This document shows positions 1-28,348 of a DNA stretch of 28,436 nt, piece by piece. Origin of the DNA: Eledone cirrhosa (taxonomy: Eukaryota); contig CAXHJY010001557.1 of NCBI GenBank assembly GCA_964016885.1, positions 1 through 28,436 of the forward strand. Direction: 5' to 3'. Made by a program: the position numbers and the translations under genes. The notes below the pieces were generated by a model. It searched no databases. It was not told the origin of the DNA and saw nothing but the letters and a program-made list of their open reading frames with translations. The number at the start of each line of letters is the position of its first letter. Position 1 is the first letter of the stretch.

Positions 1-57
1 AAAAGCATATAGCGATATGTGCTTTTACGATTCTCTAGAGAAGCCGGAAGATAGGTA

Positions 58-102
58 AATATTGCTGATGAGTTGTAACAACAACGAAACTAGTTCAATA
101 TT
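58..102 (+). ncRNA. Type I hammerhead ribozyme, first of 19 copies (one per unit)
   Basis: Stem I AATATTG(58-64)/CAATATT(96-102); core CTGATGA 65-71; stem II GTTGT/ACAAC with AACA loop 72-85; GAAA 86-89; palindromic stem III AACTAGTT; GUU triplet 93-95, predicted cut after 95. Stem I extends imperfectly to 30-125. Confidence 0.92.
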
Positions 103-3100
103 CCTTGTCTGGCTTTCTGGAGAATAGAGGAAAGGTGTTTCCTCAAAAACCAGTATGACTCTAAAAACCGGTTTGTCTGTGTGTTTACATACAGAATAGC
201 TGGCCACTCACAGTAAAGTGATCAGTGAAAAAAAACTTGGTACATCTACATATGTATACGTGTGTGTATTCATATACATACTAGTATTTCAGTATACATA
301 TATGGATGTACATCTTTGACTTAATTGTTTGAGCGTCAGTCATACAAAAGTGAGTTACAAACGAAACGAAATTTAATTTCGTTTCGTTATTTGTTTTTAT
401 CGTCTCCGTTGAACCGGTACTTACTCACACTCTATGCAAGTTGGTCTGCCCACTACTAATTTTCATAGAAAAAGCATATAGCGATATGTGCTTTTACGAT
501 TCTCTAGAGAAGCCGGAAGATAGGTAAATATTGCTGATGAGTTGTAACAACAACGAAACTAGTTCAATATTCCTTGTCTGGCTTTCTGGAGAATAGAGGA
601 AAGGTGTTTCCTCAAAAACCAGTATGACTCTAAAAACCGGTTTGTCTGTGTGTTTACATACAGAATAGCTGGCCACTCACAGTAAAGTGATCAGTGAAAA
701 AAAACTTGGTACATCTACATATGTATACGTGTGTGTATTCATATACATACTAGTATTTCAGTATACATATATGGATGTACATCTTTGACTTAATTGTTTG
801 AGCGTCAGTCATACAAAAGTGAGTTACAAACGAAACGAAATTTAATTTCGTTTCGTTATTTGTTTTTATCGTCTCCGTTGAACCGGTACTTACTCACACT
901 CTATGCAAGTTGGTCTGCCCACTACTAATTTTCATAGAAAAAGCATATAGCGATATGTGCTTTTACGATTCTCTAGAGAAGCCGGAAGATAGGTAAATAT
1001 TGCTGATGAGTTGTAACAACAACGAAACTAGTTCAATATTCCTTGTCTGGCTTTCTGGAGAATAGAGGAAAGGTGTTTCCTCAAAAACCAGTATGACTCT
1101 AAAAACCGGTTTGTCTGTGTGTTTACATACAGAATAGCTGGCCACTCACAGTAAAGTGATCAGTGAAAAAAAACTTGGTACATCTACATATGTATACGTG
1201 TGTGTATTCATATACATACTAGTATTTCAGTATACATATATGGATGTACATCTTTGACTTAATTGTTTGAGCGTCAGTCATACAAAAGTGAGTTACAAAC
1301 GAAACGAAATTTAATTTCGTTTCGTTATTTGTTTTTATCGTCTCCGTTGAACCGGTACTTACTCACACTCTATGCAAGTTGGTCTGCCCACTACTAATTT
1401 TCATAGAAAAAGCATATAGCGATATGTGCTTTTACGATTCTCTAGAGAAGCCGGAAGATAGGTAAATATTGCTGATGAGTTGTAACAACAACGAAACTAG
1501 TTCAATATTCCTTGTCTGGCTTTCTGGAGAATAGAGGAAAGGTGTTTCCTCAAAAACCAGTATGACTCTAAAAACCGGTTTGTCTGTGTGTTTACATACA
1601 GAATAGCTGGCCACTCACAGTAAAGTGATCAGTGAAAAAAAAACTTGGTACATCTACATATGTATACGTGTGTGTATTCATATACATACTAGTATTTCAG
1701 TATACATATATGGATGTACATCTTTGACTTAATTGTTTGAGCGTCAGTCATACAAAAGTGAGTTACAAACGAAACGAAATTTAATTTCGTTTCGTTATTT
1801 GTTTTTATCGTCTCCGTTGAACCGGTACTTACTCACACTCTATGCAAGTTGGTCTGCCCACTACTAATTTTCATAGAAAAAGCATATAGCGATATGTGCT
1901 TTTACGATTCTCTAGAGAAGCCGGAAGATAGGTAAATATTGCTGATGAGTTGTAACAACAACGAAACTAGTTCAATATTCCTTGTCTGGCTTTCTGGAGA
2001 ATAGAGGAAAGGTGTTTCCTCAAAAACCAGTATGACTCTAAAAACCGGTTTGTCTGTGTGTTTACATACAGAATAGCTGGCCACTCACAGTAAAGTGATC
2101 AGTGAAAAAAAACTTGGTACATCTACATATGTATACGTGTGTGTATTCATATACATACTAGTATTTCAGTATACATATATGGATGTACATCTTTGACTTA
2201 ATTGTTTGAGCGTCAGTCATACAAAAGTGAGTTACAAACGAAACGAAATTTAATTTCGTTTCGTTATTTGTTTTTATCGTCTCCGTTGAACCGGTACTTA
2301 CTCACACTCTATGCAAGTTGGTCTGCCCACTACTAATTTTCATAGAAAAAGCATATAGCGATATGTGCTTTTACGATTCTCTAGAGAAGCGGAAGATAGG
2401 TAAATATTGCTGATGAGTTGTAACAACAACGAAACTAGTTCAATATTCCTTGTCTGGCTTTCTGGAGAATAGAGGAAAGGTGTTTCCTCAAAAACCAGTA
2501 TGACTCTAAAAACCGGTTTGTCTGTGTGTTTACATACAGAATAGCTGGCCACTCACAGTAAAGTGATCAGTGAAAAAAAACTTGGTACATCTACATATGT
2601 ATACGTGTGTGTATTCATATACATACTAGTATTTCAGTATACATATATGGATGTACATCTTTGACTTAATTGTTTGAGCGTCAGTCATACAAAAGTGAGT
2701 TACAAACGAAACGAAATTTAATTTCGTTTCGTTATTTGTTTTTATCGTCTCCGTTGAACCGGTACTTACTCACACTCTATGCAAGTTGGTCTGCCCACTA
2801 CTAATTTTCATAGAAAAAGCATATAGCGATATGTGCTTTTACGATTCTCTAGAGAAGCCGGAAGATAGGTAAATATTGCTGATGAGTTGTAACAACAACG
2901 AAACTAGTTCAATATTCCTTGTCTGGCTTTCTGGAGAATAGAGGAAAGGTGTTTCCTCAAAAACCAGTATGACTCTAAAAACCGGTTTGTCTGTGTGTTT
3001 ACATACAGAATAGCTGGCCACTCACAGTAAAGTGATCAGTGAAAAAAAACTTGGTACATCTACATATGTATACGTGTGTGTATTCATATACATACTAGTA

Positions 3101-6100
3101 TTTCAGTATACATATATGGATGTACATCTTTGACTTAATTGTTTGAGCGTCAGTCATACAAAAGTGAGTTACAAACGAAACGAAATTTAATTTCGTTTCG
3201 TTATTTGTTTTTATCGTCTCCGTTGAACCGGTACTTACTCACACTCTATGCAAGTTGGTCTGCCCACTACTAATTTTCATAGAAAAAGCATATAGCGATA
3301 TGTGCTTTTACGATTCTCTAGAGAAGCCGGAAGATAGGTAAATATTGCTGATGAGTTGTAACAACAACGAAACTAGTTCAATATTCCTTGTCTGGCTTTC
3401 TGGAGAATAGAGGAAAGGTGTTTCCTCAAAAACCAGTATGACTCTAAAAACCGGTTTGTCTGTGTGTTTACATACAGAATAGCTGGCCACTCACAGTAAA
3501 GTGATCAGTGAAAAAAAACTTGGTACATCTACATATGTATACGTGTGTGTATTCATATACATACTAGTATTTCAGTATACATATATGGATGTACATCTTT
3601 GACTTAATTGTTTGAGCGTCAGTCATACAAAAGTGAGTTACAAACGAAACGAAATTTAATTTCGTTTCGTTATTTGTTTTTATCGTCTCCGTTGAACCGG
3701 TACTTACTCACACTCTATGCAAGTTGGTCTGCCCACTACTAATTTTCATAGAAAAAGCATATAGCGATATGTGCTTTTACGATTCTCTAGAGAAGCCGGA
3801 AGATAGGTAAATATTGCTGATGAGTTGTAACAACAACGAAACTAGTTCAATATTCCTTGTCTGGCTTTCTGGAGAATAGAGGAAAGGTGTTTCCTCAAAA
3901 ACCAGTATGACTCTAAAAACCGGTTTGTCTGTGTGTTTACATACAGAATAGCTGGCCACTCACAGTAAAGTGATCAGTGAAAAAAAACTTGGTACATCTA
4001 CATATGTATACGTGTGTGTATTCATATACATACTAGTATTTCAGTATACATATATGGATGTACATCTTTGACTTAATTGTTTGAGCGTCAGTCATACAAA
4101 AGTGAGTTACAAACGAAACGAAATTTAATTTCGTTTCGTTATTTGTTTTTATCGTCTCCGTTGAACCGGTACTTACTCACACTCTATGCAAGTTGGTCTG
4201 CCCACTACTAATTTTCATAGAAAAAGCATATAGCGATATGTGCTTTTACGATTCTCTAGAGAAGCCGGAAGATAGGTAAATATTGCTGATGAGTTGTAAC
4301 AACAACGAAACTAGTTCAATATTCCTTGTCTGGCTTTCTGGAGAATAGAGGAAAGGTGTTTCCTCAAAAACCAGTATGACTCTAAAAACCGGTTTGTCTG
4401 TGTGTTTACATACAGAATAGCTGGCCACTCACAGTAAAGTGATCAGTGAAAAAAAACTTGGTACATCTACATATGTATACGTGTGTGTATTCATATACAT
4501 ACTAGTATTTCAGTATACATATATGGATGTACATCTTTGACTTAATTGTTTGAGCGTCAGTCATACAAAAGTGAGTTACAAACGAAACGAAATTTAATTT
4601 CGTTTCGTTATTTGTTTTTATCGTCTCCGTTGAACCGGTACTTACTCACACTCTATGCAAGTTGGTCTGCCCACTACTAATTTTCATAGAAAAAGCATAT
4701 AGCGATATGTGCTTTTACGATTCTCTAGAGAAGCCGGAAGATAGGTAAATATTGCTGATGAGTTGTAACAACAACGAAACTAGTTCAATATTCCTTGTCT
4801 GGCTTTCTGGAGAATAGAGGAAAGGTGTTTCCTCAAAAACCAGTATGACTCTAAAAACCGGTTTGTCTGTGTGTTTACATACAGAATAGCTGGCCACTCA
4901 CAGTAAAGTGATCAGTGAAAAAAAACTTGGTACATCTACATATGTATACGTGTGTGTATTCATATACATACTAGTATTTCAGTATACATATATGGATGTA
5001 CATCTTTGACTTAATTGTTTGAGCGTCAGTCATACAAAAGTGAGTTACAAACGAAACGAAATTTAATTTCGTTTCGTTATTTGTTTTTATCGTCTCCGTT
5101 GAACCGGTACTTACTCACACTCTATGCAAGTTGGTCTGCCCACTACTAATTTTCATAGAAAAAGCATATAGCGATATGTGCTTTTACGATTCTCTAGAGA
5201 AGCCGGAAGATAGGTAAATATTGCTGATGAGTTGTAACAACAACGAAACTAGTTCAATATTCCTTGTCTGGCTTTCTGGAGAATAGAGGAAAGGTGTTTC
5301 CTCAAAAACCAGTATGACTCTAAAAACCGGTTTGTCTGTGTGTTTACATACAGAATAGCTGGCCACTCACAGTAAAGTGATCAGTGAAAAAAAACTTGGT
5401 ACATCTACATATGTATACGTGTGTGTATTCATATACATACTAGTATTTCAGTATACATATATGGATGTACATCTTTGACTTAATTGTTTGAGCGTCAGTC
5501 ATACAAAAGTGAGTTACAAACGAAACGAAATTTAATTTCGTTTCGTTATTTGTTTTTATCGTCTCCGTTGAACCGGTACTTACTCACACTCTATGCAAGT
5601 TGGTCTGCCCACTACTAATTTTCATAGAAAAAGCATATAGCGATATGTGCTTTTACGATTCTCTAGAGAAGCCGGAAGATAGGTAAATATTGCTGATGAG
5701 TTGTAACAACAACGAAACTAGTTCAATATTCCTTGTCTGGCTTTCTGGAGAATAGAGGAAAGGTGTTTCCTCAAAACCAGTATGACTCTAAAAACCGGTT
5801 TGTCTGTGTGTTTACATACAGAATAGCTGGCCACTCACAGTAAAGTGATCAGTGAAAAAAAACTTGGTACATCTACATATGTATACGTGTGTGTATTCAT
5901 ATACATACTAGTATTTCAGTATACATATATGGATGTACATCTTTGACTTAATTGTTTGAGCGTCAGTCATACAAAAGTGAGTTACAAACGAAACGAAATT
6001 TAATTTCGTTTCGTTATTTGTTTTTATCGTCTCCGTTGAACCGGTACTTACTCACACTCTATGCAAGTTGGTCTGCCCACTACTAATTTTCATAGAAAAA

Positions 6101-8498
6101 GCATATAGCGATATGTGCTTTTACGATTCTCTAGAGAAGCCGGAAGATAGGTAAATATTGCTGATGAGTTGTAACAACAACGAAACTAGTTCAATATTCC
6201 TTGTCTGGCTTTCTGGAGAATAGAGGAAAGGTGTTTCCTCAAAAACCAGTATGACTCTAAAAACCGGTTTGTCTGTGTGTTTACATACAGAATAGCTGGC
6301 CACTCACAGTAAAGTGATCAGTGAAAAAAAACTTGGTACATCTACATATGTATACGTGTGTGTATTCATATACATACTAGTATTTCAGTATACATATATG
6401 GATGTACATCTTTGACTTAATTGTTTGAGCGTCAGTCATACAAAAGTGAGTTACAAACGAAACGAAATTTAATTTCGTTTCGTTATTTGTTTTTATCGTC
6501 TCCGTTGAACCGGTACTTACTCACACTCTATGCAAGTTGGTCTGCCCACTACTAATTTTCATAGAAAAAGCATATAGCGATATGTGCTTTTACGATTCTC
6601 TAGAGAAGCCGGAAGATAGGTAAATATTGCTGATGAGTTGTAACAACAACGAAACTAGTTCAATATTCCTTGTCTGGCTTTCTGGAGAATAGAGGAAAGG
6701 TGTTTCCTCAAAAACCAGTATGACTCTAAAAACCGGTTTGTCTGTGTGTTTACATACAGAATAGCTGGCCACTCACAGTAAAGTGATCAGTGAAAAAAAA
6801 CTTGGTACATCTACATATGTATACGTGTGTGTATTCATATACATACTAGTATTTCAGTATACATATATGGATGTACATCTTTGACTTAATTGTTTGAGCG
6901 TCAGTCATACAAAAGTGAGTTACAAACGAAACGAAATTTAATTTCGTTTCGTTATTTGTTTTTATCGTCTCCGTTGAACCGGTACTTACTCACACTCTAT
7001 GCAAGTTGGTCTGCCCACTACTAATTTTCATAGAAAAAGCATATAGCGATATGTGCTTTTACGATTCTCTAGAGAAGCCGGAAGATAGGTAAATATTGCT
7101 GATGAGTTGTAACAACAACGAAACTAGTTCAATATTCCTTGTCTGGCTTTCTGGAGAATAGAGGAAAGGTGTTTCCTCAAAAACCAGTATGACTCTAAAA
7201 ACCGGTTTGTCTGTGTGTTTACATACAGAATAGCTGGCCACTCACAGTAAAGTGATCAGTGAAAAAAAACTTGGTACATCTACATATGTATACGTGTGTG
7301 TATTCATATACATACTAGTATTTCAGTATACATATATGGATGTACATCTTTGACTTAATTGTTTGAGCGTCAGTCATACAAAAGTGAGTTACAAACGAAA
7401 CGAAATTTAATTTCGTTTCGTTATTTGTTTTTATCGTCTCCGTTGAACCGGTACTTACTCACACTCTATGCAAGTTGGTCTGCCCACTACTAATTTTCAT
7501 AGAAAAAGCATATAGCGATATGTGCTTTTACGATTCTCTAGAGAAGCCGGAAGATAGGTAAATATTGCTGATGAGTTGTAACAACAACGAAACTAGTTCA
7601 ATATTCCTTGTCTGGCTTTCTGGAGAATAGAGGAAAGGTGTTTCCTCAAAAACCAGTATGACTCTAAAAACCGGTTTGTCTGTGTGTTTACATACAGAAT
7701 AGCTGGCCACTCACAGTAAAGTGATCAGTGAAAAAAAACTTGGTACATCTACATATGTATACGTGTGTGTATTCATATACATACTAGTATTTCAGTATAC
7801 ATATATGGATGTACATCTTTGACTTAATTGTTTGAGCGTCAGTCATACAAAAGTGAGTTACAAACGAAACGAAATTTAATTTCGTTTCGTTATTTGTTTT
7901 TATCGTCTCCGTTGAACCGGTACTTACTCACACTCTATGCAAGTTGGTCTGCCCACTACTAATTTTCATAGAAAAAGCATATAGCGATATGTGCTTTTAC
8001 GATTCTCTAGAGAAGCCGGAAGATAGGTAAATATTGCTGATGAGTTGTAACAACAACGAAACTAGTTCAATATTCCTTGTCTGGCTTTCTGGAGAATAGA
8101 GGAAAGGTGTTTCCTCAAAAACCAGTATGACTCTAAAAACCGGTTTGTCTGTGTGTTTACATACAGAATAGCTGGCCACTCACAGTAAAGTGATCAGTGA
8201 AAAAAAACTTGGTACATCTACATATGTATACGTGTGTGTATTCATATACATACTAGTATTTCAGTATACATATATGGATGTACATCTTTGACTTAATTGT
8301 TTGAGCGTCAGTCATACAAAAGTGAGTTACAAACGAAACGAAATTTAATTTCGTTTCGTTATTTGTTTTTATCGTCTCCGTTGAACCGGTACTTACTCAC
8401 ACTCTATGCAAGTTGGTCTGCCCACTACTAATTTTCATAGAAAAAGCATATAGCGATATGTGCTTTTACGATTCTCTAGAGAAGCCGGAAGATAGGTA

Positions 8499-8543
8499 AA
8501 TATTGCTGATGAGTTGTAACAACAACGAAACTAGTTCAATATT
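8499..8543 (+). ncRNA. Type I hammerhead ribozyme, last (19th) copy of the array
   Basis: Identical to 58-102; followed by 234 nt of unit sequence after the cut site, then the TA tract. Confidence 0.9.
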
Positions 8544-8779
8544 CCTTGTCTGGCTTTCTGGAGAATAGAGGAAAGGTGTTTCCTCAAAAACCAGTATGAC
8601 TCTAAAAACCGGTTTGTCTGTGTGTTTACATACAGAATAGCTGGCCACTCACAGTAAAGTGATCAGTGAAAAAAAACTTGGTACATCTACATATGTATAC
8701 GTGTGTGTATTCATATACATACTAGTATTTCAGTATACATATATGGATGTACATCTTTGACTTAATTGTTATATATATA

Positions 8780-8841
<62 letters not shown>

Positions 8842-8859
8842 TATATATATATATATATA

Positions 8860-8981
8860 TAGGAACCAGTAAGACCCCAGTAAGGGGCCTTACTGGTTCC
8901 TATTACCCACTCTACTACCCCAAGTATTGAGTACTTTGGTGCGTTATGGTCCACCTGGTTCCTTACCACATTTCCTTCGTT
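8860..8981 (+). mobile_element. Short PLE/retrozyme-like element (family A), 3' tail with a 5' fold-back hairpin
   Basis: Inverted repeat 8860-8878/8884-8902. Body is homologous to the reverse complement of 15571-15667. Flanked by TA tracts that each contain TATAAGGTTATA. Confidence 0.6.
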
Positions 8982-11170: not shown

Positions 11171-11225
11171 GTGTTTATTTTATTCTTATATATATGTATA
11201 TATATATGTATATATATATATAAAT

Positions 11226-11398
11226 TTAATATAGAAAAGCTTCAGTAGAAATCATCAGAAAGGTTTTCCCGATGATGTCTTCTACCGAATGAAACAGTTC
11301 TAGTCCTGTAGAAGCCTTTCTATATTAAATATTTACTCTTTGCCATGTATTGAGTACCTTATTTACTGTGGTTACCCCCGATTCAACGCGGGTTAAAC
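11226..11398 (+). mobile_element. Short HHR-bearing element (family B) with a partly deleted inverted arm; degenerate HHR at 11258-11320
   Basis: Stem I GAAAGGTTTTC/GAAGCCTTTC, core CCGATGA, GAAA-CAG-ttctagtc-CTG-TA. Upstream AGTAGAAATCATCAG is an inverted copy with a CTGATGA core. Homologous to 20765-20952. Confidence 0.65.
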
Positions 11399-11409
11399 TT
11401 ATATATATA

Positions 11410-16707: not shown

Positions 16708-17860
<1,153 letters not shown>

Positions 17861-18508: not shown

Positions 18509-18677
18509 GAATTTTTTAATATAAGGAACTTGTTCTTTGTTTTTATTCATTGTTTTTATTAATTTATATATATATATATATAATGTATATATATAGTTTC
18601 CTTACTATCCTTGCTTTCATATTTCTCCTTGCTCCCCTTTTCTCATTGTATTTGTATATAAACAAGTACATATATAC

Positions 18678-19284
18678 AAGGAGAAAGGAGGAGAGTAAGG
18701 AGAAAAGGAGAGCAATGAGACAAGGAGGGCAAAGAGAAAAGGAGAGCAAGGAGGGCAATGAGAAAAGGAGAGGAAGAAGAGCAATGGGAAAAGGAGAGGC
18801 AATGAGAAGAGGAGAGCAAGAAGAGCAATGAGAAAGGAGAGCAAGAAGCGCAATGAAAAAGGAGAGCAAGGAGGGCAATGGGAAAGGAGAGCAAGAAGAG
18901 CAATGAGAAAGGAGGGCAATGAGAAAGGAGAGCAAGGAGGGCAATGAGAAAGGAGAGCAAGAAGAGCAATGATAAAAGGAGAGCAAGAAGAGCAATGAGA
19001 AAGGAGGGCAATGAGAAAGGAGAGCAAGGGGGGCAATGAGAAAAGGAGAGCAAGAAGAGCAATGAGAAAGGAGGGCAATGAGAAAGGAGAGCAAGGGGGG
19101 CAATGAGAAAGGAGAGCAAGAAGAGCAATGAGAAAAGGAGAGCAAGAAGAGCAATGAGAAAGGCAGAGCAAGGAGAACAATGAGAAAGGAGAGCAAGGAG
19201 AGCAATGAGAAAGGAGAGCAAGGAGGGCAATGAAAAAAGGAGAGTAGTGAGAACATGAGAGCAATGAGAAAAGGAGGGCAAGGA
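18678..19284. repeat. Purine-rich minisatellite, ~25-bp unit GCAATGAGAAAGGAGAGCAAGRAGR with ~16-bp short variants
   Basis: Direct inspection. Confidence 0.9.
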
Positions 19285-19875
19285 GAGGTTAAGGCAAATA
19301 TTGTTCAAGTTATACTGGAAGCAGACAAAAGGGAAGAAGTGAAGAATAAAAAAAATCAACTGAAGAGGTACATTCTGCACTAAAATGACTTTTCTTCCTT
19401 TACAAATATCTCCTGGTACAAAAACTTTCTTCACGAGATTTTCTATCAGCACTAATTTCCTCGACAAAGACCCTTCAGCATGGAAGGATGATCCTGGTTA
19501 CAAAAGTGGACTCGAAAAACTTGAGAAGGCAGTTGTTGTGAATGATGTTGCAGAAAGAGGTGTCAAACTCATTCAGGATTACAATAACTGTTTCTACTTT
19601 AGGCACAAGGCCAGCAATTATGCAGTGCATTACTGGTACTTTATTTTATCGACCCCGTAAGGATGAAAGGCAAAGTCAACCTCGGCAGGATTTGAACTCA
19701 GACCGTAAAGGGACGTAACTATGCTGGAAAGCATGGCGTCCGACCCTCTACCGATACTGCCTACAATAACATTCTCGCAAAAGATGAAACTAAGAAACAA
19801 TTTGTTTTACATACCGCTACCGAAAACTGTAAAACATACTCAACTGCCACTAAATCCTCTCTTATGCCAAAATGA
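19285..19875 (+). pseudogene. C-terminal fragment of a hAT-superfamily (hATm-like) transposase, disrupted and split by a SINE
   Basis: ...FFTRFSISTNFLDKDPSAWKDDPGY...VVVNDVAERGVKLIQDYNN resumes after the SINE as ILAKDETKKQFVLHTATENCKTYSTATKSSLMPK*. An upstream stop and frameshift lie near 19380-19410. The NDxAERGV motif is recognised from memory. Confidence 0.8.
19589..19761 (-). mobile_element. tRNA-derived SINE, copy 1, with 9-bp TSD TACAATAAC
   Basis: Minus-strand A box GGCAGTATCGG and B box GAGTTCAAATCC. TSD at 19580-19588 and 19762-19770. Confidence 0.9.
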
Positions 19876-28137: not shown

Positions 28138-28343
28138 TAGAAGTGGTTACACAACAGTTAGTTCACCATACCGAGAACAATTGTTTCACCTTCGCGGATC
28201 TTCAGCTCGGGATGCTGAAGATCGCTAAGGTGAAACAGTTGTTTCTCGGTATGGCGAACTAACTGTTGTGTAACCACTTCTACCTAACTCGTCCCTTGGA
28301 CTGAGTGCTCTACCACTACGAATATTACCTTCCAGTGTTCCAC

Positions 28344-28348
<5 letters not shown>
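28138..28348 (+). mobile_element. Fold-back element (arms 28138-28206/28214-28282) with an HHR core in both arms
   Basis: Plus strand: TCGGGA tg CTGAAGA tcgctaaggt GAAA CAGTTG TT TCTCGG. Minus strand: CTGAAGA tCC gcgaa GGt GAAA CAATTG TT CTCGG. Flanked by TA tracts. Confidence 0.7.

Follow-up and report, generated by a model that had tools for sequence, protein, structure and literature searches.

Retrozymes, Penelope-like elements and the Eledone cirrhosa family

Animal retrozymes that lack long terminal repeats (LTRs), especially axolotl HHR_Amex1, consist of tandem non-coding units that each carry a type I hammerhead ribozyme. They have low GC content, a strong fold, and a stem III of one base pair with a palindromic tetraloop, and they are associated with target duplications of more than 4 bp and with Penelope-like elements (PLEs) (PMC7229834; Li et al. 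2026, 10.64898/2026.07.22.740005). All of these traits are shared by a 469-bp repeat of Eledone cirrhosa that occupies positions 1 to 8770 of contig CAXHJY010001557.1 (assembly GCA_964016885.1), the whole of which (28,436 nucleotides) is referred to here as the window. The repeat is very likely a retrozyme moved by PLE machinery, a view which a first-pass annotation of the window had put forward and which the anatomy of insertions at 80 other loci supports and makes more specific. The template for insertion was probably a circular monomer. The explanation that accounts best for the data overall, and which has a good probability of being correct, is that a PLE enzyme reverse-transcribes a cleaved and circularised monomer in rolling-circle fashion, starting at both ends of a staggered break. 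The helper probably belongs to the Hydra clade of PLEs.

Rolling-circle reverse transcription of retrozyme circles by PLEs was proposed in 2014 and 2020 (PMC4209133, PMC7229834), and how PLEs come to insert in tandem and inverted form has been described as still undefined (PMC8557442). The E. cirrhosa repeat is a new family of a known class, and the class, its link to PLEs and the circle model are already in print as proposals. The unit conforms to the sequence-level definition of a non-LTR retrozyme, with cleavage and a circular RNA as predictions. Two-armed palindromic insertions with two fixed ends, and single haplotypes, are undescribed for known non-LTR retrozymes in the accessible parts of the sources cited, to which all comparisons here are limited. 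A literature search, for which most subscription papers were out of reach, likewise returned no account of retrozyme insertions that have two arms with strictly one end of each kind, or a single haplotype, and the 469-bp family itself was not found described in the accessible literature. Among Xenopus retrozyme families, 24 of 57 match known elements, whereas for the present family no homology to the terminal repeats of a helper was found in the PLE families compared. Retrozyme units range from 51 to 972 bp (Li et al. 2026), so 469 bp is not at the long end for such repeats as had been suggested.

A truncated, inverted copy and a one-ended tail are hallmarks of PLEs (PMC8557442), and in vitro the tail corresponds to the stretch between two internal start sites (PMC11167929). 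Hydra-clade PLEs share with the retrozyme an inverted 5'-truncated copy, a one-sided tail, a (TA)n target and a hammerhead (Craig et al. 2021, PMC8557442), but the retrozyme lacks an open reading frame (ORF) and has many units in both arms. The retrozyme tail is 74 nt compared with 30-40 nt for PLEs generally (PMC8557442), and its cut site lies 231 nt upstream of the fixed end designated site A rather than about 30-40 nt as in PLEs. Anole Poseidon in vitro has two internal start sites that define the tail, uses an AT-rich target, and cuts and extends both DNA strands, as is proposed for the retrozyme, although products of more than one turn are unreported in the accessible account (Frangieh et al. 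2024, PMC11167929). MRC1 and other non-autonomous Chlamys elements are non-coding PLE parasites that are often multicopy and head-to-tail, as is the repeat described here, but they usually have a helper-like 3' end and mostly lack hammerheads, and the retrozyme differs from them in both respects (PMC8557442).

Anatomy of the insertions

The following features of the window, given with their strand, are needed to describe the insertions.

1..8770, + strand: array arm with an A-type end, at least 18.7 units of 469 bp; left part lost at the contig end
240..313, + strand: AU-rich hairpin directly upstream of site A, from the predicted fold; a similar hairpin occurs in a sister family
326..330, + strand: site A (monomer 231-235), fixed outer arm end and putative start of reverse transcription, used at 8770 here
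327..400, + strand: 74-nt 'tail' between sites A and B, defined by insertion ends, with a hairpin at 360-388 inside
400, + strand: site B (monomer 305), fixed outer end of the opposite arm, defined by insertion ends
8771..8861, no strand: (TA)n tract that served as target; on contig C825 another copy of the flank lies without an adjoining retrozyme

Counts of insertion anatomy are based on 80 loci outside the window, which comprised 20 taken from among the best matches, 20 from the start of the 1,878 exact junctions between a B end and (TA)n, and 40 drawn from 105 partly overlapping A-end hits. The majority of these loci consist of two outward-facing tandem arms that are joined at the centre and embedded in (TA)n. 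The outer arm ends are fixed, mostly at monomer 231-235 (site A) on one arm and mostly at monomer 305 (site B) on the other. Both outer ends were resolved in 55 of the 80 clusters, and all 55 pair an A end with a B end (A+A 0, B+B 0); in sets picked by one end only, A+A or B+B insertions would have surfaced. In three further clusters the second arm spans about 10 nt and likewise has the opposite end type; the others run off the stretch or into a gap (6), have a single arm (14) or contain a short internal inversion (2). One locus below the length limit of the script (L046) is A+B by eye. The window array ends at 8770 with an A end, and A+B pairing is not visible in the window itself because the left end is missing.

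Target duplications of 8-12 bp are readable at 5 of the 13 loci inspected (L017, L018, L026, L068 and L093), the remainder being ambiguous within (TA)n. The insertions have no LTRs; no search was made for a primer-binding site or polypurine tract. The 54 central junctions comprise 37 overlaps, 9 blunt joins and 8 joins with inserts; BLAST extension inflates the overlaps. At one locus (L091, around 507-600) (TA)n and an 11-nt piece of the B end follow each other in several rounds, a pattern suggestive of start sites that were abandoned repeatedly or of slippage at a later stage.

A further copy of this flank is present on contig C825, where the retrozyme is missing and a different PLE occurs instead, indicating that the window insertion is recent. 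On C825 the left flank is itself the end of a young PLE, for which the genome offers 1,487 candidate places, so that the lost arm of the window locus could not be located. Next to the site lies a Hydra-type element that is full-length but no longer intact and has a tail of about 140 nt (G000:C825, about 34000-38000).

Because the array starts with the first base of a small contig and hardly varies, an assembly artefact at the contig end might be considered, but its probability is negligible given that identical anatomy occurs within chromosome-scale contigs and that an independent public sequencing run, which may be the source sample, has (AT)n loose ends at both fixed sites. Doubt about the assembly is confined to the exact copy number.

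Haplotypes and the nature of the template

The array in the window has a period of 469 bp, 18.7 copies and 99% matches (Tandem Repeats Finder, TRF). It touches the first base of the contig, so the copy number is a minimum. Among its complete monomers, 15 of 18 are identical and the remaining three differ by one-base indels, with zero substitutions. A variant base marks the haplotype of this array.

42..42, + strand: base that is variant in every one of the 19 units (monomer 416); haplotype unique in the assembly

This variant is present in 19 of 19 window units and in none of the first 20 other loci. A pattern for the window haplotype occurs 18 times in the 3.0-Gb assembly, always within the window array, and the 19th unit has a deletion inside the pattern.

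Some other loci carry private haplotypes in both arms. Non-modal variants are common to both arms at 10 of 34 young two-armed loci, whereas the count averaged 1.17 over 20,000 shuffles and never exceeded 5. At L069 three variants are present in 14 of 14 units across oppositely oriented arms; the arms of L021 and L088 likewise share variants, which were lost to the end-trimming of the script. Within arrays of at least four full units, 24 of 29 are without a recurrent partial variant. The predicted cut site is crossed without indels at 430 of 431 junctions, and inner arm ends fall at the cut site in 1 of 108 cases versus 2.3 expected by chance. The simplest reading of single haplotypes together with scar-free crossing of the cut site is repeated copying of one circle.

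It is also conceivable that insertions were short and PLE-like at first and grew later as satellites by unequal crossing-over or slippage, their homogeneity reflecting concerted evolution at the DNA level, a model favoured by Li et al. (2026) in the accessible part of that work. Periodic variants at L022, L049 and L076 are of the kind expected from block duplication after insertion. As a general account, however, later growth is decidedly unlikely, since it does not predict private variants shared by oppositely oriented arms (as in all 14 units of L069), the 18 window units are without substitutions, and the other copy of its flank lacks the array.

Copying of a cleaved linear monomer by an enzyme that jumps repeatedly from the 5' end to the 3' end would also yield tandem units, and template switches are known at L083 and L100. 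This alternative is very improbable given that arms end no more often than expected at the cut site (1 of 108), the near-absence of indels at the junctions noted above, and the single haplotype of most arrays in a diverse family.

The repeat unit and its hammerhead ribozyme

58..102, + strand: type I hammerhead of the first unit, recurring every 469 bp; predicted cut GUU|C at 95/96
96..564, + strand: predicted cut-to-cut monomer RNA, branched and strongly folded, from sequence and fold

The unit is 469 bp, has a GC content of about 0.36 and is non-coding. The longest stop-to-stop frame within 1-1500 of the window is 60 amino acids, in agreement with the annotation, which had seen no credible ORF and had counted 19 complete hammerhead cores at 469-nt spacing. 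The core CTGATGA is indeed found 19 times in the window array, at spacings of 468-470 bp. In the first ribozyme, stem I is formed by 58-64/96-102, the core by 65-71 and stem II by 72-75/82-85, followed by GAAA at 86-89 and the palindromic ACTAGT at 89-94, with cleavage predicted after T95; stems I and II and the GUU cut site at 95/96 can thus be read from the first unit as previously described. At the gathering score Rfam gave zero matches in the window. Below it, Hammerhead_HH9 matched at 37.7 bits (E 9.6e-8) against a cut-off of 52. No Rfam match to a minus-strand ribozyme family was found across 1-1000, and low-score matches to microRNA and small RNA (sRNA) families were rejected as hairpin look-alikes.

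Stem III consists of one base pair and a palindromic CUAG loop. The core is therefore not expected to be stable as a monomeric hammerhead, and cleavage is predicted to depend on dimers. Ribozymes of this form are weak alone but active as dimers (PMC7229834, PMC4209133). Of nine Xenopus dimers, one cleaved in vitro (Li et al. 2026), and the ribozyme of anole Poseidon required protein (PMC11167929). Given these three considerations, failure of the monomer to cleave in vitro would not refute the retrozyme, contrary to the first-pass annotation.

The fold predicted for the monomer is more stable than expected (z = -9.67), with 0 of 100 shuffles equally stable. An octamer at monomer 339-346 (window 434-441) is found in several subfamilies and a sister family and may be structural. 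A promoter role for the octamer is unsupported since it is missing from the window's subfamily, the window's unit being one base off.

Family structure and selection on the ribozyme

An exact ribozyme pattern occurs 9,224 times in the assembly (control 0), including a run of 31 units on C1. A search with the monomer gave 534 candidate places, of which 33 were scored, and near-identical copies lie on many contigs. The tandem array reported for the window is real, but judged by its genomic copies the repeat is a dispersed, recently active mobile family and not a single-locus satellite.

The 80 loci fall into nested subfamilies of 86-100% identity. The catalytic core is constant among subfamilies, and stem II shows a compensatory swap between U-A and A-U. 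The cleavage triplet is GUC in older subfamilies and GUU in young ones. In 6 of 6 loci tested, the fixed differences disrupt predicted pairs less often than if they were placed at random; at one locus, 47 changes break 3 pairs versus 15.5 expected. A collinear sister family has a 421-nt monomer that is 63% identical to the 469-nt monomer, and its ribozyme pattern, with its relatives included, has 13,322 copies, so that the two families together contribute over 22,000 ribozyme copies to a single genome. The two monomers have 59 independently predicted pairs in common, 11 of which are changed on both sides, including pairs in stems I and II. Sister retrozyme families (L139, L147 and L153) keep the ACUAGU stem III and have a GUA triplet; among those listed, core spacings are about 420 to 510 bp.

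Conservation of the core and stems, together with compensatory pairs, argues that cleavage matters for spread. This bears on a further possibility, in which the same two-site insertion by a PLE uses a long uncleaved linear (or multimeric circular) array transcript and the ribozyme has a minor role. Arms do cross the cut site without scars, L014 and L094 hold partial variants in both arms, and the main in vitro substrate of the anole protein is uncleaved RNA (PMC11167929). An uncleaved template is nevertheless unlikely, as it leaves unexplained both the private haplotypes that are fixed in up to 19 units without a source elsewhere in the assembly and the invariant core and compensatory stems in families 37% apart.

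The size of the unit, its strong fold and its hammerhead would also suit an exogenous viroid-like RNA replicon captured by the genome. Such an origin is highly improbable, as there is no minus-strand ribozyme match, the fold is branched and not rod-like, the genomic subfamilies are nested at 86-100% identity, and the ribozyme pattern has 0 matches in viral and metagenome contigs.

Four sequencing runs of unknown kind were matched to the unit at the level of contigs, one of which (X1) resembles genomic DNA. Runs X4-X6, labelled as other organisms, contain the unit at a depth of about 10-50, which may be contamination. X4 has only a rare young haplotype in one closed 503-nt contig of depth 10; this contig fits a circle or a tandem array, and contamination, transfer and RNA cannot be told apart as its source. 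None of these runs was used as expression evidence.

Penelope-like elements of the genome and the candidate helper

Three PLE-type families with footprints in the window show the same pairing of A and B ends as the retrozyme, with tails of about 70-80 nt. The pairing is seen in 9 of 9 insertions of the first family (a single insertion on duplicated contigs accounts for three of them), in 9 of 9 of the second and in 7 of 7 of the third. In one Hydra-type family the pattern search had wrongly scored three insertions as 'A+A', which on inspection proved to be A+B. Two of the three families are tied to Hydra-type ORFs. The footprint scan overlooked the retrozyme itself, and its list of tails is incomplete.

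In the window, short palindromic PLE-type footprints lie in (TA)n at 8862-8979 (tail about 78 nt) and 11224-11399 (about 69 nt), the latter resembling the end of a highly active Hydra-type family that encodes a 758-aa protein. A 486-bp near-perfect palindrome in (TA)n at 16795-17280, with a 42-nt one-sided tail, is probably also a PLE footprint. In the palindromic PLE footprint at 28141-28346 both arms contain a hammerhead and the tail is about 70 nt; it has 1,752 candidate places, and longer copies of it (L045) contain an ORF with reverse transcriptase and a GIY-YIG-type domain. A purine-rich minisatellite with 9-, 25- and 92-bp periods is located at 18677-19287.

The active Hydra-type family has many copies that are 100% identical, with open frames of 758 aa. 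The candidate helper (L138) has the motifs RWR (a variant of RWK), DKT, YRDD, CxCx5C, CxxC and CxH as well as a hammerhead; its Pfam match to GIY-YIG is weak, and it is assigned to the Hydra clade by motifs. Its Atlas neighbours have HTH_animal, GIY-YIG or RVT_1 in part of their members, which fits a PLE, and a PDB sequence search with the candidate gave no match. The 3' untranslated region (L138:1417-3690 and downstream, G000:C1164) is 2.2-3.2 kb and largely TA/TG microsatellite, so the active family may spread its own target tracts.

The retrozyme unit is not an autonomous PLE, as it is without an ORF and the window has no Hydra ORF match. Both the active Hydra-type family and an old broken PLE of another type have only simple repeats in common with it. 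This comparison covered two families by BLAST over about 1.4 kb and others by eye, a minority of the genome's PLE families. As no sequence is common to the monomer and the PLE families examined, the helper is inferred and not identified. No retrozyme-PLE chimera was present in the 19 flanks inspected, and a supposed fusion (L057) is two insertions with (TA)n between them.

Points against a rolling-circle origin

Several observations count against copying of a single circle by a PLE. The case is built on genome sequence, not on RNA. The young subfamily carries the GUU triplet, and GUU cleaves more slowly than GUC. Homology between monomer and helper is absent from the untranslated regions compared. 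Recurrent partial variants occur in 5 of 29 long arrays (L014, L022, L049, L076 and L083). Those of L022, L049 and L076 are periodic and point to block duplication after insertion, while partial variants are present in both arms of L014 and L094. L083, which the 'young' filter removed from the 34-locus test, switches between two subfamily haplotypes within one arm, and its chimeric unit (6210-6658) passes from an older to a young haplotype inside the A-B tail, with a 22-nt deletion. In the 34-locus test, 4 loci have arm-specific variants only and 20 are uninformative. Shared haplotypes fit one circle or several molecules from one homogeneous source, possibly absent from the assembly. In vitro, Poseidon start sites are alike on both strands, whereas retrozyme insertions use one each, and Poseidon insertion is independent of ribozyme cleavage (PMC11167929).

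A model for retrozyme insertion

Rolling-circle copying of a circularised monomer by a PLE enzyme would begin with transcription of the arrays. Neighbouring ribozymes, whose motif is evident and under selection, would then pair via their ACUAGU palindromes and release 469-nt monomers, which would be converted to circles, probably through ligation by RtcB as may be expected from PMC7229834. A PLE protein would nick both strands of (TA)n about 8-12 bp apart, in keeping with the target and duplications observed. The free 3' ends would prime reverse transcription, one at A and the other at B, 74 nt apart; the ends are fixed in the genome, and priming is suggested by analogy with Poseidon (PMC11167929). 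Both copies would continue around the presumed circle for anything up to tens of turns before halting at random points, and microhomology would join them, which would give the palindromic two-armed insertions seen. Some long arrays may additionally expand later via unequal exchange.

A more specific form of the model, 'twin rolling-circle' target-primed reverse transcription, is offered tentatively, its chances being somewhat short of even. One dimer of the PLE protein would grip one circular RNA at two fixed sites and copy it from both ends of the same staggered break, and the 469-nt RNA, ORF-free and unrelated to the helper, would be a structural mimic of the two-site signal. If true, this would explain in one step the tandem repeats, inverted copy and one-sided tail of PLEs, and would give PLE hammerheads a role.

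Significance

As a member of its class the family is ordinary, but its insertions carry unusually clear evidence on an open mechanism. It provides genomic evidence both on rolling-circle copying of retrozyme circles and on the origin of the tandem and inverted insertions of PLEs, in the form of the strict use of one start site of each kind and the single haplotypes that extend across both arms. The occurrence of a 469-nt substrate and intact candidate enzymes in the same genome allows a direct in vitro test, and if the family is expressed it would be a natural source of circular RNA.

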